34,153 bases of DNA from a virus (IMGVR_UViG_2874968258_000005); one strand, 5' to 3'. Shown: positions 1 through 34,153, counted from the first letter of the stretch. Made by a program: numbers and translations. Notes: generated from the sequence alone by a model not told the origin.

Positions 1-696
1 TCACTTCGGGTAAGGCTGAATCCTGAATAGCTTAGTATTTAGCCGCTTCCTTGCTCGCTTGTTCAGGAATCTGATGTAACGATATTGATTAAATTTGTGC
101 GCCACGGCCCGCTCCTTATTCGCTCGTAAATATTCGCCGCGCTTCCCTCCACGATTAATCGCATTCATCGTTATCTCGTGATACCACTCACCGTCCAGTT
201 CGTAGAATGTGCTTTCATGGCTGCCAATAAAATCAAAATTTGACGCCTGATACACAACACCTGCACGCCCGCAACGTTCGTCTGCAAAGGACTGAACCCA
301 CTCCACTGACGGATACAGTAACCTGATGGTTTTCAGCGCGTAGCTGATGGCCCGTGATTCAGAGTTGCGGGGCATGTCGTCGTGTAGCCACATGCGGTTC
401 AGTTCCATATAGCCCCGGTTATCCGTTTCAAGCACAACGCGACGCCCTGAGTTGGGGTTAAGGGCATATCCCCACTGAAGAACACCAACCAGATCACGTC
501 CACTGAATACGCCCAGATGCAACCAGGAGTTATTCACAAAACGGCGGGAATAATGCTTTGTCTGAATGATTGTGCGGGCCAGCCAGCAGGATATGGTTTC
601 AACGCGCAGCTCCCTTGAACCATAGCCGACAATCCGGCCTTCATACTCAATAACGCAGGGTTTTGTCAGAATGCGTGATTTCTTCTCTTTTCCCAC
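1..696 (-). CDS. mom: DNA modification protein Mom (adenine modification, anti-restriction)
   Basis: Last gene of the element, directly downstream of and overlapping com as in Mu. Track ORF 1..738 begins at TTG; an in-frame GTG at 696 gives a 231-aa product, the length I recall for Mu Mom. Stop TGA at 1..3. Confidence 0.75.
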
Positions 697-832
697 AATA
701 CAGCTCCGTGGGATGCTCCCGGGCACTCGATATGACAATGTAACGTTTACAGCGAGGACATTTGATTTCTATATGCTTAAAACCTCCTTTAAACAGCAAT
801 TTATTGCAATTTTTACAACGAACAGAGTCCAT
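647..832 (-). CDS. com: Com, zinc-finger translational activator of mom
   Basis: 61-aa product [14 protein letters not shown]...CPRCKR...[12 protein letters not shown] with a CxxC...CxxC zinc-finger pattern matching Mu Com. ATG at 832 preceded by GGGGGAA. 3' end overlaps the mom start region. Confidence 0.8.
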
Positions 833-906
833 AATTTCCCCCAGTGTAATAACAGGATATAGCTGCCCGGAGGGCTGGGGGTATTTAATCACACTTGATG
901 CAAACC

Positions 907-934
907 GACGATCGATATGATGCTATCGATCGTC
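907..934. promoter_or_regulatory. Inverted repeat carrying two GATC (Dam) sites upstream of com-mom; candidate methylation-sensitive regulatory site of the mom promoter
   Basis: GACGATCGATA-tgatgc-TATCGATCGTC: 11-bp perfect inverted arms, each with a GATC, about 75-100 bp upstream of the com start on the transcribed strand. Confidence 0.5.
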
Positions 935-956
935 ATAAACTATACAAACTGATTAT

Positions 957-1523
957 TTAATCGCCTGGTCTGAACGCTCTCACCTCGTCCAGTGTGGGCA
1001 ACAGAGAAAGTTGTTCTTTCATCTCCCGCTGACAGCGATAAATCTCATCGTTGCGCTCAACAATGGCCTGTATCATCGCTGTGGCCAGTTCCTCAAGTTC
1101 CTGCGTCGTCAGCTGCACCTGCTGATTATCCGCATCACTCCACGCCATATGTGTTTGTGCCGCGACAGATTTTGCCAGCATGACCACCGGGGACAGGCGG
1201 GCCACTGACGAGGCGTCAGCGTTCCACGTGCGACCGTTCCATTCAAACGTGAACGGCTTCGCCTCCTGTTCTGTGCGCCATGCTTCAATTCCCTGACGTC
1301 TGGCCTCTCTGGCCGCTTCCAGCATTTCTGGTGTCACAGTGAATGGGGCTATCTCACCCCATTTGCCGCTTTGCAGTTCCTGCCAGATTTGCTGACCCGT
1401 CGGAGCGACATCATCAGCGGTGGCTGTGTAGGGGACTGCCTGGTCCCTGTCGTCAAAAAAAACGTCACAGTCTACTGCGCCACTTTCGGTATAACGGGGA
1501 TTAATGATTTTTTTAATTTCCAC
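957..1523 (-). CDS. Tail fibre assembly protein (chaperone) for the second fibre
   Basis: Sits immediately after a fibre gene; size and position typical of Tfa. Start chosen at the in-frame GTG at 1523, preceded by GAGGAA and just after the fibre stop at 1534; the track ORF extends to 1583. Confidence 0.55.
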   Translation of the reverse strand: MEIKKIINPRYTESGAVDCDVFFDDRDQAVPYTATADDVAPTGQQIWQELQSGKWGEIAPFTVTPEMLEAAREARRQGIEAWRTEQEAKPFTFEWNGRTWNADASSVARLSPVVMLAKSVAAQTHMAWSDADNQQVQLTTQELEELATAMIQAIVERNDEIYRCQREMKEQLSLLPTLDEVRAFRPGD

Positions 1524-1533
1524 GGTGCATTCC

Positions 1534-2937
1534 TCACGATGTGCGAATAAAAAGCCCGGGCATTGCGCCAGAGACATGAGCATCCGGCACCCCGGACAGG
1601 GCGCAATATGACCCCGGTAATGAATGCTCTGAACATCCCGTAATGAAAAATTGTGGGGATGCTATATACGTTCCGGTGGGAGTACTGGGCACTGAAATCC
1701 CCACCGGTCCCAGTCGTGAGCCTCTGTATGACTGCCCCCTGACAAGTCTGATGACTTTATCACCGTCAGCTTCTCCCTGGTACGCAGCAATAATCAGCCC
1801 GCCAATGTCAGGGTCTCCCCATCTGTTGCGGACAGAGCTCGCCACGATTCTGTAAATAATATCTTCTGTGGTTATATCTATTTTCACCCAGCCAGTCAGT
1901 CTGGATATGGGCCAGTAGCAGTAGCGGGTGTGATAAATGGGGCCGTTAATGCCGTAAAAAGTAAGGGATTTGGCTCTGTACCGCGGTTCTGTTGTCTCAG
2001 GGCGTGCATCAGTCCACCGGATGCTGAGCACCCCTTCAAACCGTGTGTCGGGTATGATGCCCAGGCGGCCAGCAACGGAATACTCACCTGGCAGCGCATT
2101 CCTTACCCAGGCCAGGAAATCACTCTTAGTGTCAAAACGGATAACATCTTCAGGCAGAAAAGCACACCCAAAGCCGAATGCGCCGGGTATCGCCAGACGG
2201 CCTTTTGTCCGGTCGTAAATGTCGCTCTGTGCTTCCATCGTGGCTGCACTTTTCAGCCCCAGATTATCCCGGGACTTCTGTTGTGCCTTTTCGCCTGCTG
2301 CTGCGATTTCAGACAGATGGTTAGCCGTTTTCAGAGTGCCGGTCAGCGCAGCATCAATGTCATTTTTGGCCTGTTCTGCTGCGCGGGCATAACCTGCGGC
2401 TGCCTGTGCACGCTGACCGGATAAGACGGCGTTTTTCCCCGTGCTTTTCACGTCTTCCGCTGTGGCCTTTCTGTTCTCAGCTGTGACGGTTGCATCCTGT
2501 CGGGCTTTCTCCGCAAAACGTTGTGCATCATCACGGGCCGTTGCGGCTGCCGTCACATCCTGCGCCGTCTGCCGTGCGTTTCCGGCTGCGCTCCCGGCAC
2601 TCTGCTGCGCCTGTTGCGCCAGCTCTTCGAATTTCTTCAGGGATTCCGGACGCAGGTCAATATTAGTTGCGCCCAGAAAATCATTCAGCGAACCGTCCGT
2701 TGAATCTTCATAAACGCGGATGACACCGATTTCTGAAAGGCGCCGTGTGCTTTGTGTCAGGCGAACGCTGTACACACCCGGCAGAACGGGGAAGTCATAT
2801 TCCCCGTTCTGTGTGGTGACATGGCTGAAAACACTTTTCAGAATCCCTGCACGGTTGTGTATGGAGGTTAGTGTAATGGTTGCGCCGTCCAGCGGTTCTC
2901 CCGTGGGCGTTTTAATCACACCTTTAAGCTGCGGCAT
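1534..2937 (-). CDS. Tail fibre protein 2 (N-terminal prophage-tail-fibre-type domain, Ala/Gln-rich coiled-coil shaft, C-terminal beta-rich tip)
   Basis: 467 aa. N-terminus MPQLKGVIKTPTGEPLDGATITL..., a long AQQAQQSAGSAAGNARQTAQ shaft, and a Gly/Tyr/Trp-rich C-terminal domain. Followed by a Tfa gene. Confidence 0.65.
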   Translation of the reverse strand: MPQLKGVIKTPTGEPLDGATITLTSIHNRAGILKSVFSHVTTQNGEYDFPVLPGVYSVRLTQSTRRLSEIGVIRVYEDSTDGSLNDFLGATNIDLRPESLKKFEELAQQAQQSAGSAAGNARQTAQDVTAAATARDDAQRFAEKARQDATVTAENRKATAEDVKSTGKNAVLSGQRAQAAAGYARAAEQAKNDIDAALTGTLKTANHLSEIAAAGEKAQQKSRDNLGLKSAATMEAQSDIYDRTKGRLAIPGAFGFGCAFLPEDVIRFDTKSDFLAWVRNALPGEYSVAGRLGIIPDTRFEGVLSIRWTDARPETTEPRYRAKSLTFYGINGPIYHTRYCYWPISRLTGWVKIDITTEDIIYRIVASSVRNRWGDPDIGGLIIAAYQGEADGDKVIRLVRGQSYRGSRLGPVGISVPSTPTGTYIASPQFFITGCSEHSLPGSYCALSGVPDAHVSGAMPGLFIRTS

Positions 2938-3469
2938 CGGGACGCTCCGGCCAGTTGATGGCGTTATATGTGGCTTTATCTGTGATGGTGCTGAAATCCA
3001 TCGCCTGCAGCGATTTCGCGTAAATACGGTACGCTTTCAGTTTTTCCCGGTCTTCGTCGCTGATTAGCCCCAGCAGCAGGTCTTCTTCCCATTCCCCTGT
3101 CCGGGCACTGACCTGAGCCAGAAGGGCATCACGCTCATCTTCCGCTTTGAGTCTGTAGTCAAAGACAAATTCATCATTGCGGTAAAACCAGTAACCCGGC
3201 GCGGTAATGCGGCGGTTGGCGGTAATATCAGGAACTTCAATAACACTGGCGTTACGGGGTTCAATGCCTGTCACATCCTTACCGACCCACACCACGCGCC
3301 CGTCTCCGGTGTAAACCATTTTTATGGTGTCACTGGCAAAGTTCTTCTGTTCTTCATACCAGTTTTTGCCGTCTTCCGAAAAAAGCCAGGTGACATCATA
3401 CTGTTTTGTCAGCTGATATTGTTCCGCGGTTTTCGGATTACCTGCCGTAATATTTTTTAAATGCAACAT
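2924..3469 (-). CDS. Tail fibre assembly protein (Mu U / lambda Tfa-like) for the first fibre
   Basis: 181 aa directly after the S-like fibre. C-terminal region (...KLKAYRIYAKSLQAMDFSTITDKATYNAINWPERP) resembles the Tfa C-terminal domain. Confidence 0.7.
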   Translation of the reverse strand: MLHLKNITAGNPKTAEQYQLTKQYDVTWLFSEDGKNWYEEQKNFASDTIKMVYTGDGRVVWVGKDVTGIEPRNASVIEVPDITANRRITAPGYWFYRNDEFVFDYRLKAEDERDALLAQVSARTGEWEEDLLLGLISDEDREKLKAYRIYAKSLQAMDFSTITDKATYNAINWPERPDAAA

Positions 3470-3471: not shown

Positions 3472-4572
3472 TTAAATACTCGCTACGTTATACCAGGTGC
3501 CATTAATCAGTTTTTGCAGCGGTCGGTAATACACACCGTTGACGTTATCCGCTGAGTTACGGCCGGTATCCGATATCGATATCCCTGACAACCCGTGTCC
3601 CGAAGGTGAGCGAAACGTCCATGAAACGGTGTTGCTGCCAGGGTTGTAATACATTTCATAACCATACCGCACATCCTGTACCCCCTCAGTTCGATGTTTA
3701 TAGCGGGCATCGAAGTTTCCGTAGTCTGACGGTGTTACCCGTCCTGTAACGTTTACAGCTTTATTACTCTGGATACTGCCACTCTGAAAACGCAACACAT
3801 GCACGCTATTGGCATAAACATCCAGCAGGCCATCACCATTCTGTTTGAATCCGGTGTCATTATCACCAAGAACAATTGAATTCCCCCCCAGGGCGTTCTG
3901 AACGCCGATACCCAGCGCACCATTGACCTGCGAACCACCGCCAACAGACACTTTATGCGACATGGATATTTCACCCGTCCGCAGATTAATGGTGAACGGA
4001 CGCAGGGGGCCAATATCGCCATTCTCGCCCTGACCTTCACTGGTAGGGATAAGGTGCAGGCACTCTTCCGAACGACGAAAAATCAGGCCAAAAGCTTCGT
4101 TGAAAATCCTCAGCGCATTAACACCACGGATTTTCAGCTCTCCTGTCATCGTGCCGCCTGATTGTTTTATGACTTTCAGTGCATCTGCAAAATCTGTTGC
4201 ACTCTCTTTGCCGAGAATACCGCGCACAAAAGCACTGAGCGGTGTTAATGCCATTGTGTCTTTGCCGGTAAAATACGGGAATGTATTATTCTGACCGGTT
4301 AATCCGGCAATAGCACCGGCTGAACCACTGTTCGTAATAAACAGCTTTTTCAGCGCCGTCATAATCTGGTTGGTTGTGTTTTTATCCGGTTTGATATTTG
4401 CCTGCCGGAGTATTTCCAGTAATTCAGACTGAATAATATTAAACCAGTCCGGCCCCGGATAGGTGGGCGGAATACCGTTCCCGCCTTCGGTGAAATAAAG
4501 CGTTGTTTTGCTTAATTCTGCCGCGACAGGTGGCATTACCGGCACACCCGTCGGGTTATCCACATAAAACAT
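3472..4572 (-). CDS. Tail fibre protein 1 (Mu S-like, conserved N-terminal baseplate-attachment region)
   Basis: 366 aa. N-terminus MFYVDNPTGVPVMPPVA...YFTEGGNGIPPTYPGPDWFNIIQSEL is typical of Mu/P2-type fibre N-termini. Position is right after the baseplate genes. Confidence 0.7.
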   Translation of the reverse strand: MFYVDNPTGVPVMPPVAAELSKTTLYFTEGGNGIPPTYPGPDWFNIIQSELLEILRQANIKPDKNTTNQIMTALKKLFITNSGSAGAIAGLTGQNNTFPYFTGKDTMALTPLSAFVRGILGKESATDFADALKVIKQSGGTMTGELKIRGVNALRIFNEAFGLIFRRSEECLHLIPTSEGQGENGDIGPLRPFTINLRTGEISMSHKVSVGGGSQVNGALGIGVQNALGGNSIVLGDNDTGFKQNGDGLLDVYANSVHVLRFQSGSIQSNKAVNVTGRVTPSDYGNFDARYKHRTEGVQDVRYGYEMYYNPGSNTVSWTFRSPSGHGLSGISISDTGRNSADNVNGVYYRPLQKLINGTWYNVASI

Positions 4573-4575: not shown

Positions 4576-5160
4576 TTATTCTCCGGTGTAATAATATTCA
4601 TATTCCGTGCCCGCCAGCCGGTAATGCTTCAGCAGGCATTCCAGCTCGCGGGTCCGTTCGCTGATTAATGGTGTCATGACGCCATCAATACAGGTAAACC
4701 GCCCGGCATCTTTACCCGGGACGTTCACTTTCAGCATCCAGCGATACCGCGCCGGATGCAGCGGATACATGCAGTCGCGCAGACAGTGGTGCGGCAGAAC
4801 GGCTGTCACCTTAATGGTGAAGCCCAGCGCCGCTGCTGCGGCTTCAGTCTGCCAGGTTGCCAGCCCGCCCCTGCGACGGTATTTCTCCACCACGGCACGG
4901 CGGCGGGCTTCCCTGGTGGTGGGGGCAATTCCGCATTCCGGCAGCGCCAGATACTGCTCCCACTCCGGCAGCAGCCGGAGCGTGGTTTCCGGGCGCATCT
5001 CCACATGCAGACGCGAGGCGTCGTATTCAGTGCGGTTTAAACGTTCTGCAAGCGCCCTTAAAAAGCGGTTTAAATCCGCGTCGTTATCACGCGGCCATGC
5101 CTTACCCCGTGGCATGACCTGTTGCAGTGCGGCCAGCCATTCCGTCACGCTGTGAGCCAT
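4576..5160 (-). CDS. Baseplate/tail protein, Mu gp48-like (DUF2313, P2 gpI-like)
   Basis: 194 aa between the baseplate J-like gene and the fibre gene. Family assigned by synteny and sequence character. Confidence 0.55.
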   Translation of the reverse strand: MAHSVTEWLAALQQVMPRGKAWPRDNDADLNRFLRALAERLNRTEYDASRLHVEMRPETTLRLLPEWEQYLALPECGIAPTTREARRRAVVEKYRRRGGLATWQTEAAAAALGFTIKVTAVLPHHCLRDCMYPLHPARYRWMLKVNVPGKDAGRFTCIDGVMTPLISERTRELECLLKHYRLAGTEYEYYYTGE

Positions 5161-6221
5161 GTCGCCTCCCCGATGGTGATAAGCTCATCCACATCACTGG
5201 TGGTGTCCTCCCCGATGTTAAGGAAGTAATCCGTGATGCCGGACGTCATACCGATGGCCGTGCGCAGCGAGGACACCGGCAGCGTCTGACCGGGTGCCAG
5301 TGTCTTCTGTAACGCGGTCAGGTTTGCCCGGACGGCGCTCCTGTTCGCTAGGCTGTCCGGTGTCAGACGGATGGATATGCTGACTTTCTTCAGCCTGACC
5401 TGTACCGGCCAGACCTCAATGCCGCCCGGTTTGCCCACCATCACGCCCGTGGCCGGGTGTTTGTGGCAGAACAGATACTGCTCCATTGTCTTCAGATCTT
5501 CGCGGGTTGGCACGATGTTTTCCCGGTCATCATAAAGCCATGCCAGCCCGACCGTGCCGGGGCCGTGCCATGCATCCCACGCCCACGCGCGGCTGACGCC
5601 CGGCACTTCACGCGCCCATATCACGTAGTCATGCAACGCGCCGCCTGTCGGTGGATTGCGGCGCACATACAGCAGACGGTCCAGCAGCGCTGCGATGGAT
5701 TCAGTGTCTGCGCCACCGGTGATGCCACCTTCAGCCACCGCGCCTGTGCTGGCCGTTCCGGGCAGCGGGGACAGCAGGGTGAGTACGGCACCGGCAGCAA
5801 GATTGCCCGCCACACCGGCTTCTTCAGCCTGCACGATGACGGTGACCTCGCCGTCCTGCACCTCGCCGGACGTGAGTACCTGATACACCTGGTTCGTGTC
5901 GGACTGCATCCGGGTTTCTGCCGGAAGGGGGGACTGACTGGTGAAGGTCACCCGCCCGCTGGCAAAGGTGGCCTGCTTGCGGATAACCCCTTCATACTTT
6001 GCTGTTTTGATAATGGTTTCATCATCAGACGTGGTGGACGGGATTATCTGGTCCTTAATCCAGCTCTGATGGTCGTATAAATCCCGGACCTGACTGCTGA
6101 ATGACACGTTCAGCGCCTGCTCAACACTGACAGGCGGCAGCTTTTGCAGGCCGAGTTCATACGCAATATCTTTTTCGCCGTCGGCAATCAGTTTGCCCAG
6201 CGTGGGGATTTCATACGGCAT
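5145..6221 (-). CDS. Baseplate J-like protein (Mu gp47-like)
   Basis: 358 aa in the baseplate block. Length and position as for Baseplate_J family proteins. Confidence 0.65.
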   Translation of the reverse strand: MPYEIPTLGKLIADGEKDIAYELGLQKLPPVSVEQALNVSFSSQVRDLYDHQSWIKDQIIPSTTSDDETIIKTAKYEGVIRKQATFASGRVTFTSQSPLPAETRMQSDTNQVYQVLTSGEVQDGEVTVIVQAEEAGVAGNLAAGAVLTLLSPLPGTASTGAVAEGGITGGADTESIAALLDRLLYVRRNPPTGGALHDYVIWAREVPGVSRAWAWDAWHGPGTVGLAWLYDDRENIVPTREDLKTMEQYLFCHKHPATGVMVGKPGGIEVWPVQVRLKKVSISIRLTPDSLANRSAVRANLTALQKTLAPGQTLPVSSLRTAIGMTSGITDYFLNIGEDTTSDVDELITIGEATWLTA

Positions 6222-6663
6222 TAATGGTGGCCTCCCATCGACGGGTGATTTCGATTCTGAGTGTGGTTTTGTCCGGGCGGGTTAACACCACCAGAAAGGC
6301 AATACGGTCAGGAATGATGATGCTGGCCGTGACGGTGGCGTTACGGGTGTAACCGGCATGCAGAAGCGGCTGCATGGACAGCCGCGCGTAATCTTCCACG
6401 CGCAGGCGGACATCTTCCGTCAGCTTTTCACGCTCAAGCAGCCACAGGCGGGAACCCCACGAAAAATCGTTGTACGTGTCGCCCGGCCAGCCGCGCGGGT
6501 CGCCGGAGCCGTCAGGAATGACATCATCGTCATCAGCGCGGGCATCGGTGAAAAGGCAGATAAGAACCTGAGTGACCAGCCCCTCATCCCGTGAGAGGCC
6601 GTTATGGGTGACGGTGATGTCACCCCGTGAGAGCATGTTATTCCAGCGGATTTCTGTCGTCAT
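6211..6663 (-). CDS. Baseplate wedge protein, Mu gp46-like (GP46 / P2 gpW-like)
   Basis: 150 aa in the baseplate block, overlapping neighbours by 4-11 nt. Confidence 0.6.
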   Translation of the reverse strand: MTTEIRWNNMLSRGDITVTHNGLSRDEGLVTQVLICLFTDARADDDDVIPDGSGDPRGWPGDTYNDFSWGSRLWLLEREKLTEDVRLRVEDYARLSMQPLLHAGYTRNATVTASIIIPDRIAFLVVLTRPDKTTLRIEITRRWEATINAV

Positions 6664-7196
6664 ACGGGCGGTGATGTCTTCTCATTGTCGCCGTCCTTAT
6701 GAATGTGTTCGCTGAATGATTTACCCTTGATTCTGACATCTTCAGTAAATTCACAGGGACCGACGAATTTCATTTGTTTACCGATAATATTCAGCAATTC
6801 GTCGGCGGTGAGATTTACCGTTTTCCCTGAAACGTCTACCTGTTCTCCTGTGATTTCAATGACGCCGTTTTCCTTCAGGGTGATGTGTGATTTGCCGTCC
6901 CGGTGATACACCCTGACATCGCCGGGGGACAGTCCTTTCGGGCGACATCGCTTGTCTTCCACCGCGATGGCAACCAGCCCGTCACGCCGTCCGCCAACGG
7001 CCAGCACAATGGCTTCAGAACCTTCCGGCGGAACGGACGTAAACCCGTAGTTCTGGAAGCGTTCCACGTCGTCATCGGTGGCATCTGCCAGCGTCTGAAT
7101 TTGCAGGTTCTGCCGTGCCAGACCGTCAGACACCAGGCGGACAACAGCGCGGTCAACCATCAGTCGCAGGCGGCGGGCAATTGCGTTTAATCCCAT
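6660..7196 (-). CDS. Baseplate spike/assembly protein V-like (Mu gp45-like)
   Basis: 178 aa following the hub gene, with features typical of gpV-type spikes. Confidence 0.6.
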   Translation of the reverse strand: MGLNAIARRLRLMVDRAVVRLVSDGLARQNLQIQTLADATDDDVERFQNYGFTSVPPEGSEAIVLAVGGRRDGLVAIAVEDKRCRPKGLSPGDVRVYHRDGKSHITLKENGVIEITGEQVDVSGKTVNLTADELLNIIGKQMKFVGPCEFTEDVRIKGKSFSEHIHKDGDNEKTSPPV

Positions 7197-22584: not shown

Positions 22585-22586
22585 GT

Positions 22587-26283: not shown

Positions 26284-26290
26284 TATCGTA

Positions 26291-26324
26291 CCTCCAGAAA
26301 AGGGGGCGGTGCGGCAACACCGCC
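26291..26324 (-). promoter_or_regulatory. Hairpin plus U-rich tract in the gemA leader (attenuator/terminator-like)
   Basis: Minus-strand GGCGGTG-uugccg-CACCGCC followed by CCCCUUUUCUGGAGG, the last part being the gemA RBS. Confidence 0.35.
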
Positions 26325-26356
26325 AGAATCCACTCACTAAACAGAGGAAACTTTTT

Positions 26357-26876: not shown

Positions 26877-26905
26877 TTCGTAATACCTCTTCGCAATAAA
26901 AGATT

Positions 26906-27052
26906 TCATTGGGATAACGTTTTTGTATGCGCTCCATCACCTGCATACATGTCTGCTCTGTGGGCCAGATTTTTTTCCGTTACCGGAATGGCATCGCAGG
27001 CATCATTTCCGCAGGTGCCAACCAGCAGGACAAAGCCAGTTGACTTAATCAT
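26906..27052 (-). CDS. Candidate small protein (48 aa, Cys-containing)
   Basis: ATG at 27052 with an AGGAA RBS; overlaps the upstream gene by 8 nt. Confidence 0.3.
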   Translation of the reverse strand: MIKSTGFVLLVGTCGNDACDAIPVTEKNLAHRADMYAGDGAHTKTLSQ

Positions 27053-27584
27053 GCTCGCTGATTTCCTGTGTTTCCGCCGGAACCGGTGAATAATCAAGAA
27101 TGAGATAGCGCAGGACGTGGTCGGTGATATTCCAGCCACTGGAGCCACAAATAAAACGACCCAGCCGGATATCGATATAAGCCATCACAAAACGGGGCAT
27201 TCCCTGTTTACACATCTCGTCATCCACTTCAGCAACGATGTAAACCGACTCGCAGGTCAGTACGCCTGTCGCAAATTCTTTTGCCAGTGCCGGAATGGCA
27301 TTGCCTTCCAGCCAGGGCAAAGAGCGGCGGAACGTGCACCATTGCGCACCATCAACATCGGGGTGCTCCGTTGAATTTCGCCCGGCAGGCGGCTCTGCCC
27401 GGGAGCGCGGAACGTCGTAAAAGCCGTTCAGTTCAGTCAGCACTCCGGCATCAACCGCATCACGCAGGAAATACACCATTGCAGAGACCGGCATCCTCAT
27501 TTTGTCCGCCAGAACACCACAGGTCAGACGTCCGTAAGCCCGTAATAATGTGCTGACACCGTTCAGAACTTTTGCATCAATCAC
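27045..27584 (-). CDS. Hypothetical early-region protein (179 aa)
   Basis: ORF packed tightly between neighbours on the operon strand. Confidence 0.5.
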   Translation of the reverse strand: MIDAKVLNGVSTLLRAYGRLTCGVLADKMRMPVSAMVYFLRDAVDAGVLTELNGFYDVPRSRAEPPAGRNSTEHPDVDGAQWCTFRRSLPWLEGNAIPALAKEFATGVLTCESVYIVAEVDDEMCKQGMPRFVMAYIDIRLGRFICGSSGWNITDHVLRYLILDYSPVPAETQEISEHD

Positions 27585-27587
27585 CGG

Positions 27588-28136
27588 TTATTCCTCCGTC
27601 AGTGCCACAAATTCAGAATGTTTAATGCGCTGGCATTCGGCAGGAACCGGTCCCTTAACCTCACCATCCAGCAGGCACACCTCAAACAAAATGCCGAATC
27701 CGTCACGGCTGTGGTGCATCGTCCAGACTGATTTGAGATCAAACATGTTGGGTACAACATCAACCCCGAGTTCATTACACAACCAGACCGGGAATGTGGG
27801 ATATTTCCGGAGTTGCTCTTCATGTTCCTGAATAAGCGTCGCATTGTTTCGGCCTTCCGGTGTTGTTATATCCGGTACAACGCCATAAAACTGAAATCCA
27901 CCAATAAACAGTCCGTCTGATTTACCACGCCATAATTCCGGCGCTAATTGATTCATCCAGATACATTCAACCCGTTCATACCCTCTGTTACTGACAAGGG
28001 AAACACCGTCTGCGCCAAACGCACGCTGCAATGAGCAGATGATTTTGTCACGCTTAACAGAAACATCTTTCAGCCAGCGAATCGTATAACCGTTAGCGGC
28101 TGCGTCACTCAGTTTAAAATAAGCATATGCTTTCAT
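27588..28136 (-). CDS. Hypothetical early-region protein (182 aa)
   Basis: Start at the ATG preceded by GAGGAA (MKAYAYFKLSD...). Directly downstream of gam. Confidence 0.5.
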   Translation of the reverse strand: MKAYAYFKLSDAAANGYTIRWLKDVSVKRDKIICSLQRAFGADGVSLVSNRGYERVECIWMNQLAPELWRGKSDGLFIGGFQFYGVVPDITTPEGRNNATLIQEHEEQLRKYPTFPVWLCNELGVDVVPNMFDLKSVWTMHHSRDGFGILFEVCLLDGEVKGPVPAECQRIKHSEFVALTEE

Positions 28137-28233
28137 ATTCATTTCCTCTGGTCCTGATTCAGGCGCGAGCAATCCCCTGACGCATCGCGCCATAATTAAA
28201 AGAAAGTGAATTAATTAAATATTCGTCGTGGTA

Positions 28234-28758
28234 TTAAATACCGGCATCCTGTTCAAACGGAATAATAGAAAAATCTTCAATGCCTGATTTAACTGTAATT
28301 CCGGCGACACCTGCGACTGCTTTCGGCTCCAGTAAAATCGCTTCCTTGTTGATTTCCTGTTTCGTGCGAATAAAGCGTTGAAGGCCAAGACGCTCCAGTG
28401 TTTCCATCACCGCATCCACACCGCGAATACTTACTGATGGTGGGCGCTGACGCCATGACACATCACCGGTTACCAGGTTTGCCGTCTTCACCTTGCCGCC
28501 GTTCGTCAGTTCGTCACGGTTCGCTTCACACCATCCCTGAACGCCTTTTGAAAGGGTTTCGATACTGGTTTTAAGCGGTGCAATCTGTGAGGCGTATTTC
28601 TCCGTAATCTCAGCGATAGCGTCATTCATTTCCGTTTCAAGTCGTGCTGCTTCGCGTTGCAGGTCCCCAATCCGGCGGATATCACATACCACGGCATCGC
28701 GGGATTGCGGAACATAAGCCGCTGCGGCGTTCCTGATTCGTTTTGCGGGTTTAGCCAT
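28234..28758 (-). CDS. gam: Host-nuclease inhibitor protein Gam (Mu Gam family, DNA-end binding)
   Basis: 174 aa, the same length as Mu Gam, with MAKPAKRIRNAAAAYVPQSRDAV...WCEANRDELTNGGKVKTANLVTGDVSWRQRPPSVSIRG... Confidence 0.85.
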   Translation of the reverse strand: MAKPAKRIRNAAAAYVPQSRDAVVCDIRRIGDLQREAARLETEMNDAIAEITEKYASQIAPLKTSIETLSKGVQGWCEANRDELTNGGKVKTANLVTGDVSWRQRPPSVSIRGVDAVMETLERLGLQRFIRTKQEINKEAILLEPKAVAGVAGITVKSGIEDFSIIPFEQDAGI

Positions 28759-28776
28759 AAATAAAGCTCCTGTTAA

Positions 28777-29064
28777 TTAATATTCACTGTATACAATGCC
28801 GGATACAGCACGATTGCTTAATTCCATCTTTTGGGCTATCACATGAATAGCCAGCCCTTCTTTATAAAGTTCACGGCATAAATATTTGTCGTGCTCACTG
28901 ACCTGGTATGCACACAACGATATTCCGTGCCTTCTGGCATGTGCCTGTAGGGCGGTTGGGGCAACTTTCAGTTTTTTCGCCATTTCCTCGACGGTCATTT
29001 TTCCGACACTGGCTTCGATAAATTCCCGGTCTTCGCGTGACCAGCGTTTACGATTACACGTCAT
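28777..29064 (-). CDS. Small DNA-binding protein with two helix-turn-helix-like segments
   Basis: ...RKRWSREDREFIEASVGKMTVEEMAKKLKVAPTALQAHARRHGI... AT-rich segment. Start taken at the internal ATG; the track ORF begins at 29076 (GTG). Confidence 0.5.
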   Translation of the reverse strand: MTCNRKRWSREDREFIEASVGKMTVEEMAKKLKVAPTALQAHARRHGISLCAYQVSEHDKYLCRELYKEGLAIHVIAQKMELSNRAVSGIVYSEY

Positions 29065-29076
29065 TCCGGTCACCAC

Positions 29077-29496
29077 TCAGTACAACAGAGGCTCGCGCAG
29101 TGATGCCGGAATATGCCGCAGCGATAACTGAACCGCTTTCAGGACAAGCGAGGAATAACAGCAGCGCGCCCAGCCTTTTGCCATTAACCGGTAATCGCGC
29201 CAGATACGCTGCCACATTTCACGGGCTTTCGGGTCTGACGCGCAGATGTATTCGCGGTCCATGACGTATTCCCATAAATCCACATTGAAGGCATTGCCAA
29301 ACGTAATGGCGCGGAATACCGCCTCTCCGCAATAACGCGCACAAATGCTGTAATGGTCAAATGCAATCAGGTAAGTCTTTTCGCCATACCCCTCAACTTC
29401 GCGCGCACAAATAAATTCGCGCAAGTCTCCACCATTGTTATTACGCTCTTTAATCCGAATTAATGCCCGGATTTCATTTCGGATTTTGACGTTCAT
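29077..29496 (-). CDS. Hypothetical early protein (139 aa)
   Basis: ATG with an AAAGGAA RBS. AT-rich segment between kil-like and gam. Confidence 0.45.
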   Translation of the reverse strand: MNVKIRNEIRALIRIKERNNNGGDLREFICAREVEGYGEKTYLIAFDHYSICARYCGEAVFRAITFGNAFNVDLWEYVMDREYICASDPKAREMWQRIWRDYRLMAKGWARCCYSSLVLKAVQLSLRHIPASLREPLLY

Positions 29497-29510
29497 TGTC
29501 AGCGTTCCTT

Positions 29511-29774
29511 TCAGTGGCATGTTTTTTCAACAGCCATTTCAGTGACACGGCCACCGGTGATGACACTATCGTTTTTCAAAATCTCGATAGCTTCATGGGC
29601 TGACTCATTAATTATTTTCTGGCTTTTATTAAGCACCAGTAACGCCACCATGCCAGCAAGTGTACCCTCATCACCGTCCAGTTCCGCACTACCGTCCACC
29701 GCAATGCTGGTGCGCAAATTCAGTCCTTTAATTCCAGATACTGTATTTTTAATTTCAATAATTACTTTTGCCAT
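29511..29774 (-). CDS. Hypothetical early protein (87 aa)
   Basis: ATG preceded by GAGGA (MAKVIIEIKN...). Confidence 0.45.
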   Translation of the reverse strand: MAKVIIEIKNTVSGIKGLNLRTSIAVDGSAELDGDEGTLAGMVALLVLNKSQKIINESAHEAIEILKNDSVITGGRVTEMAVEKTCH

Positions 29775-29806
29775 TTTGTTATTCCTCACAAATAAATAAG
29801 CCGTTA

Positions 29807-30034
29807 TTAACGCCAGATAATCTGGCAGCCATTAAGGCGGGCCGTCCATACTGAACGGGCAACCCCTGATTTATGCTCCATAATCCTGACAGCGTTTCTG
29901 ACCAGCTCCGGTGGTGGGCAGGTGATTTCAAGTACCGGACGCGCCACGCCGAGATATGATTCATTTACGTGACTCCCGTGCGCCTGTAACCAGTTCTGCG
30001 CATCCGTTGCCATTTTTATATTTCGTGACATCAT
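29807..30034 (-). CDS. Kil-like small protein (first gene after B)
   Basis: 75 aa in the position of Mu kil (74 aa). Assignment is by synteny and size only. Confidence 0.4.
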
Positions 30035-30049: not shown

Positions 30050-31000
30050 CTACCAGTTCAGTAACCTGGGGTTGCTGTAAGCCTCCTTAAAAGCCGCTTT
30101 AATGTGACTTTTATTCAGGGATGTGCCTGCACCTTTTGCCGCCAGCCACGCATGATTCAGTGTGTGAGTTAATACACGCAATCCCCCGGGCTTTTCGGCT
30201 ACCCTCATCAGCAGGTCCAGCTCATCTTCCTGTGTTACTCCCCATGCTTTGGCTACAGCCATCACATCGGTCTTTTTTACTTTGCGCAGTTGTTTTGTCA
30301 TGGCAAAACGGCTGAACAGACGGGCCAGTTCATCAGTCCCACGACGGGTGGCATCCGCCATCTGTTTCGGGTTGCCAATTAAAACCATCCCCACGCCAGT
30401 GGCATCCTGAATGGCGCGTAATTGCTCCAGACCATCCACACTTAAGTGATCAGCTTCATCAATAATCAGAAGGGGGTTAACACGGCCACTGGTTTCTTTA
30501 CCACCACCCAGTTTTCTGCGAATGGCGCGGGTTATATTCCCCTTATTTCTTCCCGGATTATTAATTTCCAGCGCATATGCTATTTCAAGGAGGCATTCCG
30601 TTACGCTCGAATGTGCCGGAGCAAGAGTCACCATCCAGGCATTAGCTGTCCTGCGACAATATTCCCGGGCAGCAAAGGTTTTTCCGACACCCGGTACGCC
30701 AACAACGACACTGATAATCCCGAGTGAGCGCACTGTTTTAAACAGCTCATGCAAATCACAAAATGTCTGGGTCTTCACAACACCAGGGGTACCTGACAAG
30801 TTCTGTCCCTTCTGCCAGACCTGATACCATTTCTGTAATTTGTCATGCATACCTTCGACATTACCGTTGTACTCTCCTTTACGCAGAGCCGAGAGTGTTG
30901 CCGGAGACATTCCGGCTTCATCAGCAATATCTTCCTGAGACTTGTCGCCCTCGTTAATCAAAGCGTTAATAGTGTTGAAAACATCATCAATATCAGTCAT
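30050..31000 (-). CDS. B: Transposition ATPase / target DNA activator B (MuB)
   Basis: 316 aa with Walker A GVPGVGKT and Walker B LLIIDEADHL. GAGGAA RBS. Directly downstream of A. Confidence 0.9.
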   Translation of the reverse strand: MTDIDDVFNTINALINEGDKSQEDIADEAGMSPATLSALRKGEYNGNVEGMHDKLQKWYQVWQKGQNLSGTPGVVKTQTFCDLHELFKTVRSLGIISVVVGVPGVGKTFAAREYCRRTANAWMVTLAPAHSSVTECLLEIAYALEINNPGRNKGNITRAIRRKLGGGKETSGRVNPLLIIDEADHLSVDGLEQLRAIQDATGVGMVLIGNPKQMADATRRGTDELARLFSRFAMTKQLRKVKKTDVMAVAKAWGVTQEDELDLLMRVAEKPGGLRVLTHTLNHAWLAAKGAGTSLNKSHIKAAFKEAYSNPRLLNW

Positions 31001-31075: not shown

Positions 31076-33172
31076 TCAGGCCAGCGGATCATCTTCTTCC
31101 TGCATGGCAAAAAGTTTTTGCATCCCCAGCCGGAAATCGCGTTCAAATTCTTCGTCATGCTCTTCTTCATATTCCGGTTGCTGAACTGCCACCACATTAC
31201 CAACCGGGCGATAAACATTACTCAGCCAGGGTTCAGCCTGTTTGTGTTCCAGAATCTGAATACCTTCATCTTCAGCATCACGAATTTTTTCCTCAGCGCG
31301 TTTGCGCATTCCTTTAATACGCTGCTGTTGTTTGTGATATTCAGCACTGACAGCAAAGGCTGCGCGTTTATTGCCGTTCCATATCGCCTCACAGATAAAG
31401 CTGCCGTCCTTGCGACGTACCGTAATTCGCTCGGCGTCATGAATGTCATAACTGATAAGCACTTTGCGACCGTGTTCGTCACGCAACTCCGGCGCGTAGT
31501 AAATATTGTTCAGCCACTGAATTTCGCAGCGTCTTACCGGTCGTTCCACCATTGGGCGGAACATGTCGCGCAGCTCAAGATCACTCAGCCACTCAATTTC
31601 GGTGTCTTCTTCTGCCAGGCGTTTTTTTCTGAACTCTGTCGGGCTGTAATGCCGTCCGTTCGGTTTCATCGGCAGCTCAGAATGCGGGCGGTTGTTGTAC
31701 CATTCCACGCCTTCACGAATAGCCTCAATAAGCTCCGCCCACGATGGCAGCTCGCGCATTGCCGCTTTCTGGCGGTCGTTCAGAGGCTTGTCCTGTTGCA
31801 GGGCGTTAAACGCTGAACGCAGATCACGGTTAAGTACACGCAACGATTCCCGGTCAGCACCCTTGCCAAAATAGGTGCGATACCTCCTGGCTATACGCAT
31901 CGGCAGTGTCCGGTTCAGGCGTTCAATAATGCCGCGTCCCTGTGGATTACCGGCAATACCGGTAGGGTGTTTAATCCCCAGGCGTGGCAGAATACCCACG
32001 ACCTCTTTGTCCAGCATGTCAGCCGTTTCACCGGAACCGTTATCCGAGTAATACAGGAACGGTTTTCCGTGGTTGCGAATGCCGTGCTGTATCGCACCGG
32101 CAACGGCGAACACGTTTTCGGCAAGGTCAAGACTCCAGCCAACAACAAACCGTGTTCCACCATCGATCACAAACGTGACTTCCGGTGAGAATGGACGCCC
32201 GTGGATCGGATGCGCACATTTCAGCTTCATACCGTGACCGTCACCAATCCAGACATAATTCACCGGCATAGCTGTCCAGTCGCGGCGGGTGAATCCTTCA
32301 AGCTGACGGTATTCACTGCCGGTAACGCGCCCTTTTTGTCTCACCACTTCCGGCAGTTTTTTCATGGCATACCGGACAACATCATAGGAAGGCATCACCT
32401 CCAGCATGTACGGTTCGTCCGCATGGCGACGCTGCCATTCTGCGACAAAATCCTCGTAGGCTTCTGACATGGGTCTGCCGTTCACCTGCCGATACTGCGC
32501 CAGAAATTCAGGCAGCCAGCTGATTTCTTCCGGTTTTATTTCGTCGCGTTTTCCCGGTGCCAGTAACAGCAGCCGTTCGGCGGCGTTCTGCGACTGGTTG
32601 TATTTCAGAACCCACTGGTAAAGTGGATCGCGGCTGATAGTACGATTAGCGCCACGTTTTGCATTGGCGTTAACTGCGGCCTGTTGCAGGCGCTCCGGCA
32701 GCTCACCTTTACGGGCTTTTTCAACAAGAAAGTTAATGGCTTTCAGTCGCCCGAGGTTACCGGCGCTTTCCAGCTTCAGCACTTCCACCACCAGCGCAGC
32801 TCTTGCTTCAGATACCCGGCGCTGGTTTTCGGTCAGCGCATTCAGGCGTTCTTCCATCAGTTGTGGAGAACCGCGATATGCTTCGATTGCCTGGACAGCG
32901 TCAGGATTGCGTGTTTTTCTGGTAACAGCTTTCACTTCAGAAACATTGTTCTCTGTAGCCACCAGCTGTTCCACATAGCGTTCACGCAGTGCCTTTCGTG
33001 TTATTTCAGGCAGACAATCAATGTGGTACTCAATGGCTTTTGTGCCTTCCCGACGGCGACTAACGTCACCAAGATCACGAGAAAAACGCTGTAACGCCTG
33101 TCGGATGCCTTTTGTGGTGGCTGGCATTCCTGGTACGCCGAGCAGGTCATTTACGGTAACGTACGACTGCAT
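31076..33172 (-). CDS. A: DDE transposase A (MuA family)
   Basis: N-terminal winged-helix region (...GTKAIEY...) and DDE core (...WIGDGH..., ...YSDNGSG..., ...GNPQGRGIIERLNRTL...). ATG 1 nt after the ner stop (TGAtATG); the track ORF extends to 33241 from a GTG. Confidence 0.9.
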   Translation of the reverse strand: MQSYVTVNDLLGVPGMPATTKGIRQALQRFSRDLGDVSRRREGTKAIEYHIDCLPEITRKALRERYVEQLVATENNVSEVKAVTRKTRNPDAVQAIEAYRGSPQLMEERLNALTENQRRVSEARAALVVEVLKLESAGNLGRLKAINFLVEKARKGELPERLQQAAVNANAKRGANRTISRDPLYQWVLKYNQSQNAAERLLLLAPGKRDEIKPEEISWLPEFLAQYRQVNGRPMSEAYEDFVAEWQRRHADEPYMLEVMPSYDVVRYAMKKLPEVVRQKGRVTGSEYRQLEGFTRRDWTAMPVNYVWIGDGHGMKLKCAHPIHGRPFSPEVTFVIDGGTRFVVGWSLDLAENVFAVAGAIQHGIRNHGKPFLYYSDNGSGETADMLDKEVVGILPRLGIKHPTGIAGNPQGRGIIERLNRTLPMRIARRYRTYFGKGADRESLRVLNRDLRSAFNALQQDKPLNDRQKAAMRELPSWAELIEAIREGVEWYNNRPHSELPMKPNGRHYSPTEFRKKRLAEEDTEIEWLSDLELRDMFRPMVERPVRRCEIQWLNNIYYAPELRDEHGRKVLISYDIHDAERITVRRKDGSFICEAIWNGNKRAAFAVSAEYHKQQQRIKGMRKRAEEKIRDAEDEGIQILEHKQAEPWLSNVYRPVGNVVAVQQPEYEEEHDEEFERDFRLGMQKLFAMQEEDDPLA

Positions 33173-33173
33173 A

Positions 33174-33425
33174 TCACGACACCTTCCTGATAAATCCATC
33201 GTTACGATACCGGCTGGGCCAGATGATTTCTGGCGGTACACCTATAGCGTCAGAAATTACGCGTTCGTATTTTTTGTTTGGTGTGCGAACTACCGCTTTC
33301 AGTGAATCCTGAGCATAACCAGCATGGAGTGAAAGCTCCCGGAAGGAAGACCACCCGTTATCTTTGAGCGCCAGCTGAATCTTCAGCGAAGGCCAATCGC
33401 GGTCACTATCTTCTCTTTGTCTCAT
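33174..33425 (-). CDS. ner: Ner-like DNA-binding regulator (Ner/Nlp family)
   Basis: 83 aa with ...DW...IWPSRY... motifs. Divergent from the repressor and immediately upstream of A. Confidence 0.8.
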   Translation of the reverse strand: MRQREDSDRDWPSLKIQLALKDNGWSSFRELSLHAGYAQDSLKAVVRTPNKKYERVISDAIGVPPEIIWPSRYRNDGFIRKVS

Positions 33426-33589
33426 CTTTCCTTTAACCTACAAAATTACCCGCGCGGATATCCGGTCGGATATCCGTATGGATAAAGATTAAGATACCAA
33501 AGATTCCTTGTAAAGGGTTCTTTGGTGTTTTTATGGTTTATTTTTTAATTTCATTATTTATCAATGAATTAGATAGGAAGGAACCAAGA
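33426..33589. promoter_or_regulatory. Divergent operator/promoter region between repressor and ner (early promoter, operators, possible transposition enhancer)
   Basis: Tandem 10-bp perfect palindromes CGGATATCCG at about 33455-33464 and 33467-33476, plus a partial third copy. The remainder is AT-rich. Confidence 0.5.
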
Positions 33590-34153
33590 ATGAGAAAAGC
33601 ACCCCAAGGTTCTTTTCCTGCCGATGGAAAAGAACCGATTATCGAAAGAATCTTTAGGTTAGTAGAACGATACCCTTCAAGAAATGCGGCTGCTCGGGCA
33701 TGGGGGATCAATGAAGGCACTTTAAAAAATTATTACAACAGGCGGGATTACGCACCGATACCACGCCCGCATCAGTTAAAAAAGATAGCAGAAAGCGAAA
33801 ATGTTACCTTGGAATGGCTCATGACGGGAGAGGGTGATGTTGAACTAAAAGATTCCAAAGAACCCAAAAAAGAGAATGCGGATAATGTTGATGCTCAAAT
33901 TCTAATGTTCTTGTCATTTCTTAAACCACAAGAAAAACAACAAGTAGCTGATGTTCTTGGGAGAAAAGGAGCGGAGCAATTACTCATTCTTCTGGATGAG
34001 CACATCCAAGAGTTGCACGCTCTAGTTGGAGTTCGTAGAGCCATAGCGTTAAGCCTTGGTAATTTGCCAGACGAAAAGGTTAGAGAGATTTACGCGTTGT
34101 CCGAAGCTAAGGGCGATCACTTAAATCTACCTCAGAAAGCAGCCAGCGCATAA
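33590..34153 (+). CDS. Prophage repressor (c-equivalent), XRE-type helix-turn-helix
   Basis: Start at the ATG preceded by AGGAAGGAA (the track ORF begins at 33533). HTH ...NAAARAWGINEGTLKNYYNRR... and the ...VTLEWLMTGEG... motif typical of XRE/CI-type repressors. AT-rich. Divergent from ner. Confidence 0.65.
   Translation: MRKAPQGSFPADGKEPIIERIFRLVERYPSRNAAARAWGINEGTLKNYYNRRDYAPIPRPHQLKKIAESENVTLEWLMTGEGDVELKDSKEPKKENADNVDAQILMFLSFLKPQEKQQVADVLGRKGAEQLLILLDEHIQELHALVGVRRAIALSLGNLPDEKVREIYALSEAKGDHLNLPQKAASA

Follow-up and report, generated by a model that had tools for sequence, protein, structure and literature searches.

The stretch of DNA analysed here (34,153 nucleotides; hereafter, the window) is 100% identical to CP032523.1:2532939-2567091, a GenBank record in which this exact sequence is already present and routinely annotated. 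The window opens with TCA, the mom stop codon in reverse complement, and its final three bases, TAA, end the plus-strand repressor ORF, so that the sequence-only reading, in which the window was considered to span a near-complete Mu-like transposable prophage from one stop codon to the other, was exact as to the boundaries. Apart from the repressor gene, the genes described below lie on the minus strand. The large minus-strand ORFs were assigned by comparison with PHROGs or Pfam, and every one of them matches the family expected from the Mu plan.

The repressor (33590..34153, plus strand; 187 aa) belongs to PHROG 3037, transcriptional repressor (E 1e-43). Sequence comparison reveals no similarity to Mu c, and the protein is best regarded as a putative functional analogue of Mu c, with which its gene shares position and orientation. 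The divergent c/ner control region (33426..33589) contains, according to a repeat search, 3 tandem 12-bp palindromic units, TAYCCG..YGGATA (33447-33485), which, judging from their position, are candidate operators. As the repressor and Mu c are unrelated, a shared operator and enhancer like that of the Mu model is unsupported in this element. The adjacent ner-like early regulator (33174..33425) matches Pfam HTH_35 (51.5 bits) and is 35-41% identical to Mu Ner.

The transposition genes follow. Gene A (31076..33172) encodes a DDE transposase of 698 aa that matches Pfam Mu-transpos_C (66.5 bits; cutoff 21.7) and HTH_Tnp_Mu_1 (30.6 bits; cutoff 23.3), and the core of which aligns with residues 265-644 of MuA at ~25% identity (E 5e-10). 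The candidate catalytic residues are D311, within a GDGH motif, D377 and E417, the latter two aligning with the DNG and ER motifs of retroviral integrase cores. Because this transposase is so distant from MuA, the biochemistry of Mu may not be transferable to it in detail. The adjoining gene B (30050..31000) encodes an AAA+ target-capture ATPase (Pfam Phage-MuB_C, 83.2 bits, and AAA_22) that is 41% identical to MuB over 305 aa. The semi-essential early region (25732..30034; PHROGs 286, 6075, 1949, 2260, 491, 323, 3690, 10252 and 2743) comprises gemA, gp14/gp12/gp11-like genes, a DUF5420 gene, gam (28234-28758), gp9/gp8/gp7-like genes and kil (29807-30034), and its kil-gam-gemA block is shared with Mu at 72-95% amino acid identity (tblastn). 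Unlike Mu, with its two-step cascade of Mor and then C, the element has a single Mor/C-family transcription activator (25286..25735; Pfam Mor, 104 bits), the only gene in the window matched in tblastn by either Mu Mor (61%) or Mu C (32%).

The late region opens with an endolysin of the glycoside hydrolase family 108 type (24613..25200; PHROG 315 and the RefSeq name in a near-identical copy); no homologue of Mu lys was found in the window by tblastn with the Mu protein. Next come small late genes (22297..24611; PHROGs 8988, 436, 736, 54, 1544, 12596 and 2121), including gp26-like, DUF2730 (gp25 family), TraR/DksA zinc finger and gp18-like ones, some of which probably encode holin or lysis accessory proteins. 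The DUF3486 small terminase subunit (gp27-like), the terminase large subunit, the DUF935 portal and the F-like minor head protein (17869..22307; PHROGs 426, 2, 113 and 220) are 31-50% identical to Mu gp27, gp28, gp29 and gp30. They are followed by a 214-bp non-coding gap (17655..17868) with a terminator-like hairpin, near the centre of the element and at the same relative position as the central gyrase site of Mu; sequence comparison with that site yielded no significant similarity, and a gyrase-site role for the gap is suggested by position only. Beyond the gap, the head protease/scaffold (gpI-like) and the major head protein of the gpT family (15785..17654; PHROGs 328 and 371) are 28% and 37% identical to Mu I and T, respectively, and precede the head-tail joining genes (13649..15713; PHROGs 208, 490, 26, 195 and 10420), which encode DUF2635/gp38-like, gp37-like, G-like virion morphogenesis and gp36-like proteins and one small protein. 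The tail genes comprise the tail assembly chaperone, tail tube and tail sheath (11411..13649; PHROGs 508, 185 and 165; sheath 41% identical to Mu L), the tape measure protein (9531..11324; PHROG 973, E 5e-128), a baseplate block (4576..9531; PHROGs 203, 6, 180, 177 and 184) with collinear 29-41% matches to Mu gp48, gp47, gp46, gp45, P (gp44) and N (gp43, DNA circularisation), a tail fibre with a Mu S-like N-terminus (3472..4572; PHROG 6859; 39% identical to that of Mu S) and a tail-fibre assembly protein similar to Mu U/U' (2924..3469; PHROG 136; 47% to Mu U'). A second tail-fibre gene (1534..2937; Pfam phage_tail_N, 102.8 bits; PHROG 2636), encoding a prophage tail fibre N-terminal domain, occupies the place of S'/U'/gin in Mu, on the same strand as the first, and a DUF4376 protein (957..1583; Pfam DUF4376; PHROG 1141) is probably a chaperone or distal part for this second fibre. 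The region ends with com, the translational activator of mom (647..832; PHROG 13819 gpCom, E 2e-41; 71% to Mu Com), which overlaps the start of the DNA modification gene mom, as in Mu, and with mom itself (1..696; 231 aa; Pfam Mom, 253.9 bits), the product of which is 94% identical to Mu Mom.

The general plan and the gene order from repressor to mom are thus those of Mu (Muvirus mu), D108 and Shigella phage SfMu. In tblastn, the matches of the window proteins to the Mu genome are strictly collinear from Mu 1.1 kb to 36.6 kb, and, within this span, PHROG and RefSeq names and tblastn identify a Mu-type head and contractile-tail set in Mu order, matching gp27 through gp49. The proposal that gene content and order follow Mu therefore stands as far as collinearity is concerned but does not extend to every gene: the separate C gene and homologues of Mu c and Mu lys are missing, the G gene is positioned differently, and the endolysin is of the GH108 type. 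Furthermore, whereas Mu has gin and an invertible G segment, this element has neither, its two tail-fibre modules lying on the same strand, and Mu Gin yields no tblastn match in the window at E <= 1.

At the nucleotide level, 18.7% of the window aligns with Mu DNA in blastn, at 65-90% identity. The usual genus threshold is ~70% genome-wide nucleotide similarity, and the element is below the similarity expected for phage Mu itself or for the genus Muvirus.

The identity of the window to CP032523.1 made it possible to recover its flanks. The tips of the element lie 126 bp past the mom stop and 274 bp past the repressor stop, so that the whole element, which sits within mhpT, measures 34,553 bp. 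That the ends fall outside the window, as had been surmised, is borne out by the 9-mer TTCAAGATA, which is absent from the window but occurs 6 times in the adjoining 126 bp and 274 bp. These copies, 3 per end and inverted between the ends, all lie <150 bp from the tips and nowhere else in 40 kb, against an expectation of 0.09 per strand. The repeats are located at 18, 89 and 141 from one tip and at 18, 40 and 75 from the other, a spacing similar to that of the L1-L3 and R1-R3 sites of Mu, and are putative transposase sites, with binding by A suggested by the junction sequences. Extension of the flanks thus recovered transposon-type ends, but not the Mu-type ends that the sequence-only reading anticipated: the repeats show no sequence relation to MuA sites, and the tips are 5'-TATGACTAGG...GCGCGCTTTA-3', i.e., TA...TA, as opposed to the TG...CA of Mu. 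Although the adjoining host DNA differs among the 6 repressor-side and the 8 mom-side flanks, the terminal TA is invariant.

A short direct repeat of host DNA, which had also been expected, is present, although it is 4 bp long rather than the 5 bp of Mu. At mhpT, the duplicated sequence is CACT; when the flanks are joined with a single CACT, the element is removed exactly and mhpT is intact, with 300/300 bases matching the gene in a single piece in many E. coli genomes. A 4-bp duplication was found at all 6 junction pairs (CACT, TTTC, TGAA, ATTC, GATA and CAGG). Conceivably, the boundary could have been misplaced by one or two bases, so that the ends would in fact be canonical (TG...CA, with a 5-bp duplication): the repressor-side tip reads TATGA..., with TG two bases inward, and 2 of the 6 pairs, CACT and GATA, have a fifth base that would by chance allow a 5-bp repeat, were the terminal A counted as host DNA. 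In the other 4 pairs, however, the fifth base is incompatible with 5 bp, the terminal TA stays constant across the different flanks, and no CA occurs close to the mom-side tip ...GCGCGCTTTA. Moreover, the empty site corresponding to the FDAARGOS_943 copy lacks TA and shows an overlap of exactly 4 nt, authentic Mu in E. coli W, analysed as a control by the identical procedure, yields TG...CA and 5 bp (GCGGC), and, in an independent GenBank record, a Mu-like phage with a 76%-identical transposase carries a submitter-annotated 4-bp 'duplication due to insertion'. Canonical Mu ends are, therefore, already largely refuted and very improbable. Both the cleavage position and the stagger of 4 bp are as implied by the junction sequences.

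The same repressor or Mom protein is encoded by copies at no fewer than 11 unrelated chromosomal sites, one genome carrying two such copies, and, therefore, insertion of the element was by transposition. Consistently, no integrase family was detected among the 51 ORFs scanned against PHROGs, and there is no att junction at the flanks of the element, the kind of junction that would have spoken against a Mu-like mode of insertion. Random insertion with a short target duplication, along with 3 repeats per end, is common to this element and Mu. These observations bear on the possibility that the prophage is chimeric, combining a Mu-type early region with late genes taken from an unrelated myovirus that does not transpose, and that it integrated by another route. 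In favour of such an origin, the G+C content is mosaic, the early region and the mom end having 44-54% vs 51-62% for the late genes, and close similarity to Mu (80-94% at the amino acid level) is confined to the kil-to-gemA block and com-mom, the late genes being 28-50% identical. Yet, the late genes are collinear with those of Mu and are members of families specific to Mu (gpT head, DUF935 portal, DUF3486, gp436, DUF2635 and DNA circularisation N), and Klebsiella phage Kp4866-3, the closest phage for the late half, encodes a Mu-type transposase that is 56% identical. Because Mu-like relatives exist for both halves, early and late, the objection that they might stem from unrelated phages does not apply, and a non-Mu integration route is rejected by the transposon-type junctions; we consider a chimera of this kind the least probable of the alternatives, scarcely credible.

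A less remote, albeit still unlikely, alternative is that the prophage is Mu-like but cryptic, an immobile remnant that neither transposes nor produces particles. The window lacks 156 bp at 22304-22307 relative to FDAARGOS_943, PGAP flags one small early ORF as frameshifted in near-identical copies, and Shigella flexneri genomes hold a truncated, IS-cut c-ner-A remnant of the same element. Against this, the same 156-bp segment is missing from a second full copy, the major ORFs are all intact, with the essential-type genes at full length, both ends and the duplication are preserved, and the spread of copies over many sites, including two in one genome, argues for recent movement. Taken together, gene content, collinearity with Mu and the recovered flanks confirm the Mu-like transposable prophage first proposed from the window, and we estimate at roughly 0.93 the probability that the window comprises the entire coding portion of a temperate, Mu-like transposable phage integrated into the chromosome of Escherichia/Shigella. 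As such, this is a common type of element, intact-looking, Mu-like prophages being frequent in E. coli and Shigella.

The same element is present in E. coli FDAARGOS_943 (NZ_CP065615.1), VL40 (NZ_CM177011.1) and STEC346 (NZ_CP091044.1), with the same ends, TTCAAGATA repeats and 4-bp duplication but at other sites (the yehI/molR region, cusS-vgr and a racemase gene). The FDAARGOS_943 and VL40 copies are, respectively, 99.8% and 99.5% identical to the window in the early 9 kb and 98-99% identical elsewhere, whereas the STEC346 prophage, which differs in the immunity region and tail-fibre tips, is ~93% identical over 83% of the window. More distantly, vB_YpM_5 and vB_YpM_6, plaque-forming isolates of Mu-like phages of Yersinia/E. 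coli (PMC10434027), encode a transposase 81% identical to that of the window, have the same tips, TATGA...GCGCGCTTTA, and share 86% identity with the early region over half its length; a 4-bp duplication is likewise seen in an E. coli prophage that has ends of this type. Unlike the window element, vB_YpM_5/6 have TTTGATAC-type end repeats, retain a hin/gin invertase and G segment, and carry Mu-type late genes. Similarly, among the Sp18-like Mu-like phages of Shiga-toxin-producing E. coli (PMC10132054), Mu_JNE082796 (in LC727881.1) is the source of the 76%-identical transposase and submitter-annotated 4-bp duplication mentioned above and has TA-3' at the mom-side tip, but differs in its TG repressor-side tip, TTTGATAC-type end repeats and length of ~40 kb. 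It aligns with 15% of the window, essentially the B-A-ner region only, so that, judged on Mu_JNE082796 alone, the window element would fall outside the Sp18-like group. Transposable prophages of Leptospira also have TA...TA tips instead of TG...CA, and the question has been raised whether such ends exist in other bacteria (PMC8705779). The likeness lies in the tips: the Leptospira prophages, from an unrelated host phylum, have a 6-bp duplication, and the window element, with TA tips but 4 bp, is outside this type. The window prophage and the lineages of vB_YpM_5/6, Mu_JNE082796 and Kp4866-3 probably form an enterobacterial Mu-like branch, the transposase of which acts with a TA-3' end and a 4-bp stagger, a combination of which we found no description in the literature searched.

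By homology to Mu, the life cycle of the prophage would proceed as follows. The repressor would hold the divergent ner-A-B early operon off; upon induction, A would bind the end repeats, nick the 3' ends after ...TA and, with B, join them to target DNA, the strands of which are cut 4 bp apart, and the element would replicate through repeated transposition. The single Mor-family activator would then switch on the lysis, head, tail and com-mom genes, and DNA would be packaged by the headful mechanism from integrated copies, with Mom modifying the packaged DNA.

The main point of note in this element is the TA/4-bp chemistry of its ends. Prophage callers that cut at gene boundaries drop precisely the 126-bp and 274-bp ends that hold the proof of transposition, and a search rule of 'TG...CA plus a 5-bp repeat' would miss this lineage. 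A natural, apparently active relative of MuA whose tips are TA and whose stagger is 4 bp provides a comparison for transposition biochemistry, which could help to reveal the roles of the conserved CA dinucleotide and of target-bending geometry. Finally, an enterobacterial TA/4-bp branch, if true, would answer the question, posed for Leptospira, of whether TA-ended transposable phages exist outside that genus.

Exact matches to the proteins encoded at the two extremities of the window, the repressor and Mom, both lie in GenBank record CP032523.1, at coordinates that span exactly 34,153 bp, and the retrieved loci flanking the element in that chromosome (L004 and L015) overlap the window with zero mismatches. 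Extension of both flanks, as the sequence-only reading had proposed, reveals transposon-type ends outside the window: the complete element measures 34,553 bp, including 126 bp past the mom stop and 274 bp past the repressor stop, and its tips, in the window orientation, are 5'-TAAAGCGCGCAAAATTATTCAAGATAG ... CCGGTTATCTTGAATAAATTACCTAGTCATA-3'. The two bordering stretches of host DNA read ...GGCGACACT and CACTGGGTTT..., one per side. Rejoined through a single CACT, the flanks form a 300-bp sequence that matches, at 100% identity and in one piece, the intact mhpT of many Escherichia coli genomes; thus, this is a clean, simple insertion.

The details of the ends, by contrast, depart from the Mu-type terminal dinucleotides and the 5-bp direct repeat that had been anticipated. 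In the Mu orientation, the element reads 5'-TATGACTAGG...GCGCGCTTTA-3', with TA at both 3' ends, whereas Mu has CA at both. On the mom side, the seven outermost bases align without gaps to the Mu right end (TAAAGCG versus TGAAGCG); the TA tip therefore appears to reflect a C-to-T substitution in the penultimate base and not a displaced boundary. The target duplication is 4 bp long in all 6 assembled junction pairs, a set that leaves out the repressor-side junctions of the two copies in NZ_CP065611.1: CACT in mhpT for the window's own element, TTTC in the yehI/molR region for the copy in E. coli FDAARGOS_943, TGAA at cusS-vgr in VL40, ATTC in a racemase gene in STEC346, GATA in rlmB in TD225-C4, and CAGG in fliH in STEC388. 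A 5-bp repeat is excluded by the neighbouring base in 4 of these pairs, and the 5-bp and 6-bp readings, in which the boundary is moved by one base at either end, were rejected because they yield no direct repeat in the informative pairs. At the FDAARGOS_943 site, moreover, uninterrupted genomes align to both flanks with an overlap of exactly 4 nt. The same procedure applied to the authentic Mu prophage of E. coli W, as a control, returned TG...CA tips and the 5-bp repeat GCGGC.

Related phages share these features in part. In LC727881.1, a Mu-like phage with a transposase 76% identical to that of the element is bracketed by a 4-bp repeat (GATG) that the submitters independently labelled "duplication due to insertion"; this phage ends in TA-3' on the mom side, like the element, but has TG on the repressor side, unlike it, and the same combination is found in Klebsiella phage Kp4866-3 (transposase 56% identical). 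The plaque-forming phage vB_YpM_5 (81% identical) has the tips TATGA...GCGCGCTTTA and repeats of the TTTGATAC type. The end chemistry that the junctions imply, with TA tips and a 4-bp stagger, is well supported at the sequence level. In STEC388 (NZ_CP041425.1), the position predicted for the mom-side junction proved to be occupied by a lambdoid prophage, the real partner junction being 0.9 Mb distant: the 2 halves of fliH lie that far apart, each adjoining one end of a related prophage (L034 2020-2080 and L038 330-350). The separated halves carry matching CAGG repeats, suggesting that a large segment between two Mu-like copies has been inverted in that genome.

The expectation of Mu-type ends with repeated sites held for the arrangement of the sites but not for their sequence. 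The 9-mer TTCAAGATA occurs 6 times in the 40 kb comprising the element and its flanks, always less than 150 bp from a tip. Counted from the respective tip, the copies lie at 18, 89, and 141 on the repressor side and at 18, 40, and 75 on the mom side, and those of one end are inverted relative to those of the other; 0.09 copies would be expected per strand. In Mu, L1-L3 and R1-R3 each consist of a tip site and two inner sites, with wide spacing at the left end and tight spacing at the right. The spacing of TTCAAGATA matches this layout, although its sequence is unrelated to the MuA sites; we infer that these repeats are putative binding sites of the transposase. Between the mom stop and the innermost repeat, a T run preceded by a G+C-rich hairpin (AACAGCGGCATTAACCGCTGCTTTTTT; window-equivalent -45 to -15; L015/L001 3807-3835) is likely to be the mom terminator, located within the end region.

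The element is thus a precise, duplication-flanked insertion with transposon-type ends, and many sites are occupied. Among copies encoding the same repressor or Mom protein, the constant tips border 6 distinct host flanks at the repressor end and 8 at the mom end; with the three paired sites counted once, these amount to at least 11 insertion sites. One genome, NZ_CP065611.1, holds two copies; another copy resides inside a P2-like prophage, with the GPL and GpR tail genes adjoining the junction (L008 3565-6564, AAKB02000001.1); and 2 more E. coli chromosomes carry, at other sites, copies with identities of 99.8% and 99.5% in the early 9 kb and of 98-99% elsewhere. No integrase family was found among the scanned ORFs of the window (PHROG/Pfam). 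Together, the duplication-flanked ends, the many sites, and this lack of an integrase bear out the interpretation as a Mu-like transposable prophage. The intact ORFs and ends, and the different-site copies encoding identical proteins, argue that the lineage moved recently.

A related early region is present in roughly 320 E. coli genomes. When the genome contigs were scanned with the transposase, just two loci proved close, the few others being very distant, and the scan added no information on the ends. Chromosomes of the Shigella flexneri type (L003, L005, L006, and L010; e.g., CP000266.1) retain a conserved remnant of the element, consisting of the repressor, ner, and A followed by an IS3-family insertion and adjoining a ubiD-like gene near rpoS. 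Given that the repressor protein is present in more than 4,000 blocks of the collection, this remnant is very widespread; remnant Mu-like prophages are known from S. flexneri (PMC4406740). In LC727881.1, the related Mu-like phage sits within an Stx2c phage. Relative to the FDAARGOS_943 copy, the window is devoid of 156 bp at 22304-22307; in STEC346, this segment contains a 159-nt ORF. The segment is absent from VL40 as well, indicating a natural indel.

The window is coding nearly throughout on the minus strand, with a single plus-strand ORF at the far right, and it indeed runs from the mom stop to the repressor stop, its first three bases being a stop codon in reverse complement and its last three a stop codon. 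Scanning of its 51 ORFs against PHROG and Pfam recovered the full phage Mu repertoire. The minus strand encodes Mom (1-696); Com (647-832); two tail-fibre modules (957-4572); baseplate genes, tape measure, tail chaperone, tube, and sheath; head-tail joining genes, a gpT-family major head protein, protease, an F-like protein, and a DUF935 portal; the large terminase and DUF3486 small subunit; small late and lysis genes, with a GH108 endolysin; one Mor-family activator, GemA, several Mu "semi-essential" early genes, Gam, and Kil; the MuB-type ATPase B (30050-31000); the Mu-type transposase A (31076-33172); and a Ner-like protein (33174-33425). The repressor (33590-34153, plus strand) is transcribed divergently. 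Matches of the window proteins (tblastn) are strictly collinear along the Mu genome, from 1.1 kb to 36.6 kb, so that the gene content and order read from the sequence were correct. Rfam and tRNA scans of the window gave no matches.

In the transposase A (698 aa), Pfam recognises the N-terminal DNA-binding domain and the C-terminal transposase domain of Mu, both above cutoff, although the identity of A to MuA is only about 25% (E 5e-10 for the core and 3e-4 for the N-terminus); B is 41% identical to MuB. In alignments with retroviral integrase cores, the SDNG and IIER motifs of A (D377 and E417) fall on the second Asp and the Glu, and GDGH (D311) likely provides the first catalytic Asp. Among sequenced phages, the closest transposases are those of vB_YpM_5/6, Mu-like phages inside STEC Stx phages, Kp4866-3, Tongde, Pseudomonas VW-6B, Mannheimia 3927AP2, and SuMu. 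The repressor shows a weak CI-type helix-turn-helix signal (Pfam), and no similarity was detectable either to Mu c or to the N-terminal part of A itself. Because the repressor is unlike Mu c while A keeps a Mu-type N-terminus, homologous repressor and transposase domains reading one operator/enhancer are unsupported, and Mu-style sharing of these sites may not apply here. The interval separating ner from the repressor gene contains three palindromic 12-bp units in tandem (33447-33485; pattern TAYCCG..YGGATA; TACCCGCGCGGA TATCCGGTCGGA TATCCGTATGGA), which are candidate operators for Ner or the repressor.

Further departures from Mu concern the fibres, late control, and overall DNA similarity. 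Instead of the inverted S'/U' genes and gin of Mu, the element carries a second fibre gene on the same strand, its product having a "prophage tail fibre N-terminal" domain, and then a DUF4376 gene; 957-4572 contains two complete tail-fibre-plus-chaperone modules in tandem and no invertase. vB_YpM_5, Tongde, and Sp18, by contrast, have an invertible segment with hin/gin at this position. With no Gin homologue in the window and the second fibre gene on the same strand, host-range switching by inversion is unavailable to the phage. Mor (61%) and C (32%) of Mu both match a single gene (25286-25735; 149 aa), which necessarily makes the middle-to-late cascade simpler than that of Mu. The endolysin is of the GH108 type. 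Only 18.7% of the window aligns to Mu at the DNA level, namely, the kil-to-gemA block together with com-mom (83-90% identity) and dispersed segments of the late region (65-75%). The G+C content is 44-54% in the early region and at the mom end and mostly 55-62% in the late head and tail genes, suggesting modules of different origin. Judging from these comparisons, the genome is a mosaic; Mu-like relatives were found for each half, as opposed to a derivation of the halves from unrelated non-transposable phages. Near the element's centre, a 214-bp non-coding gap (17655-17868) contains a strong hairpin resembling a terminator (coding strand, GAAGCCGGTAAATCCGGCTTTTTTT); the strong gyrase site of Mu occupies the same place, but the two show no sequence similarity. 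RefSeq names one Mom homologue "tRNA(Gly)-dependent adenine aminoacyltransferase Mom" (L002 36602-37297, NZ_CM177011.1), and family members are still labelled "hypothetical protein" in other records.

By homology to Mu, the repressor would silence the ner-A-B operon. After induction, A would assemble on the 6 end repeats, nick past the terminal A of ...TA, and transfer the ends into B-bound target DNA with a 4-bp stagger, the genome being amplified by repeated replicative transposition. The Mor-family activator would then switch on the late genes, and headful packaging would start from the repressor end, carrying host DNA along; Com would permit translation of Mom, which would modify the DNA.

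Duplications of 5 bp in Mu and 6 bp in B3 have been described, as have Leptospira prophages with TA-TA ends and a 6-bp repeat, the occurrence of which in other bacteria was left for investigation (PMC8705779). The Mu-like phages of STEC have been called Sp18-like and occupy variable locations (PMC10132054; PMC2669165). Published accounts of SfMu, SuMu, the Yersinia Mu-like phages, Sakai Sp18, and CC119 STEC do not state end sequences or duplication length, and our literature search yielded no paper in which enterobacterial Mu-like phages are said to have TA tips or to duplicate 4 bp; the sole record found of such a duplication is the GenBank feature in LC727881.1. The finding is real, and the element is an ordinary Mu-like transposable phage whose sequence was already on record, in a lineage distinct from Mu/D108/SfMu and from the Sp18-like phages. 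Its TA tips and the 4-bp stagger implied by the junctions are the one point that raises it above routine interest.
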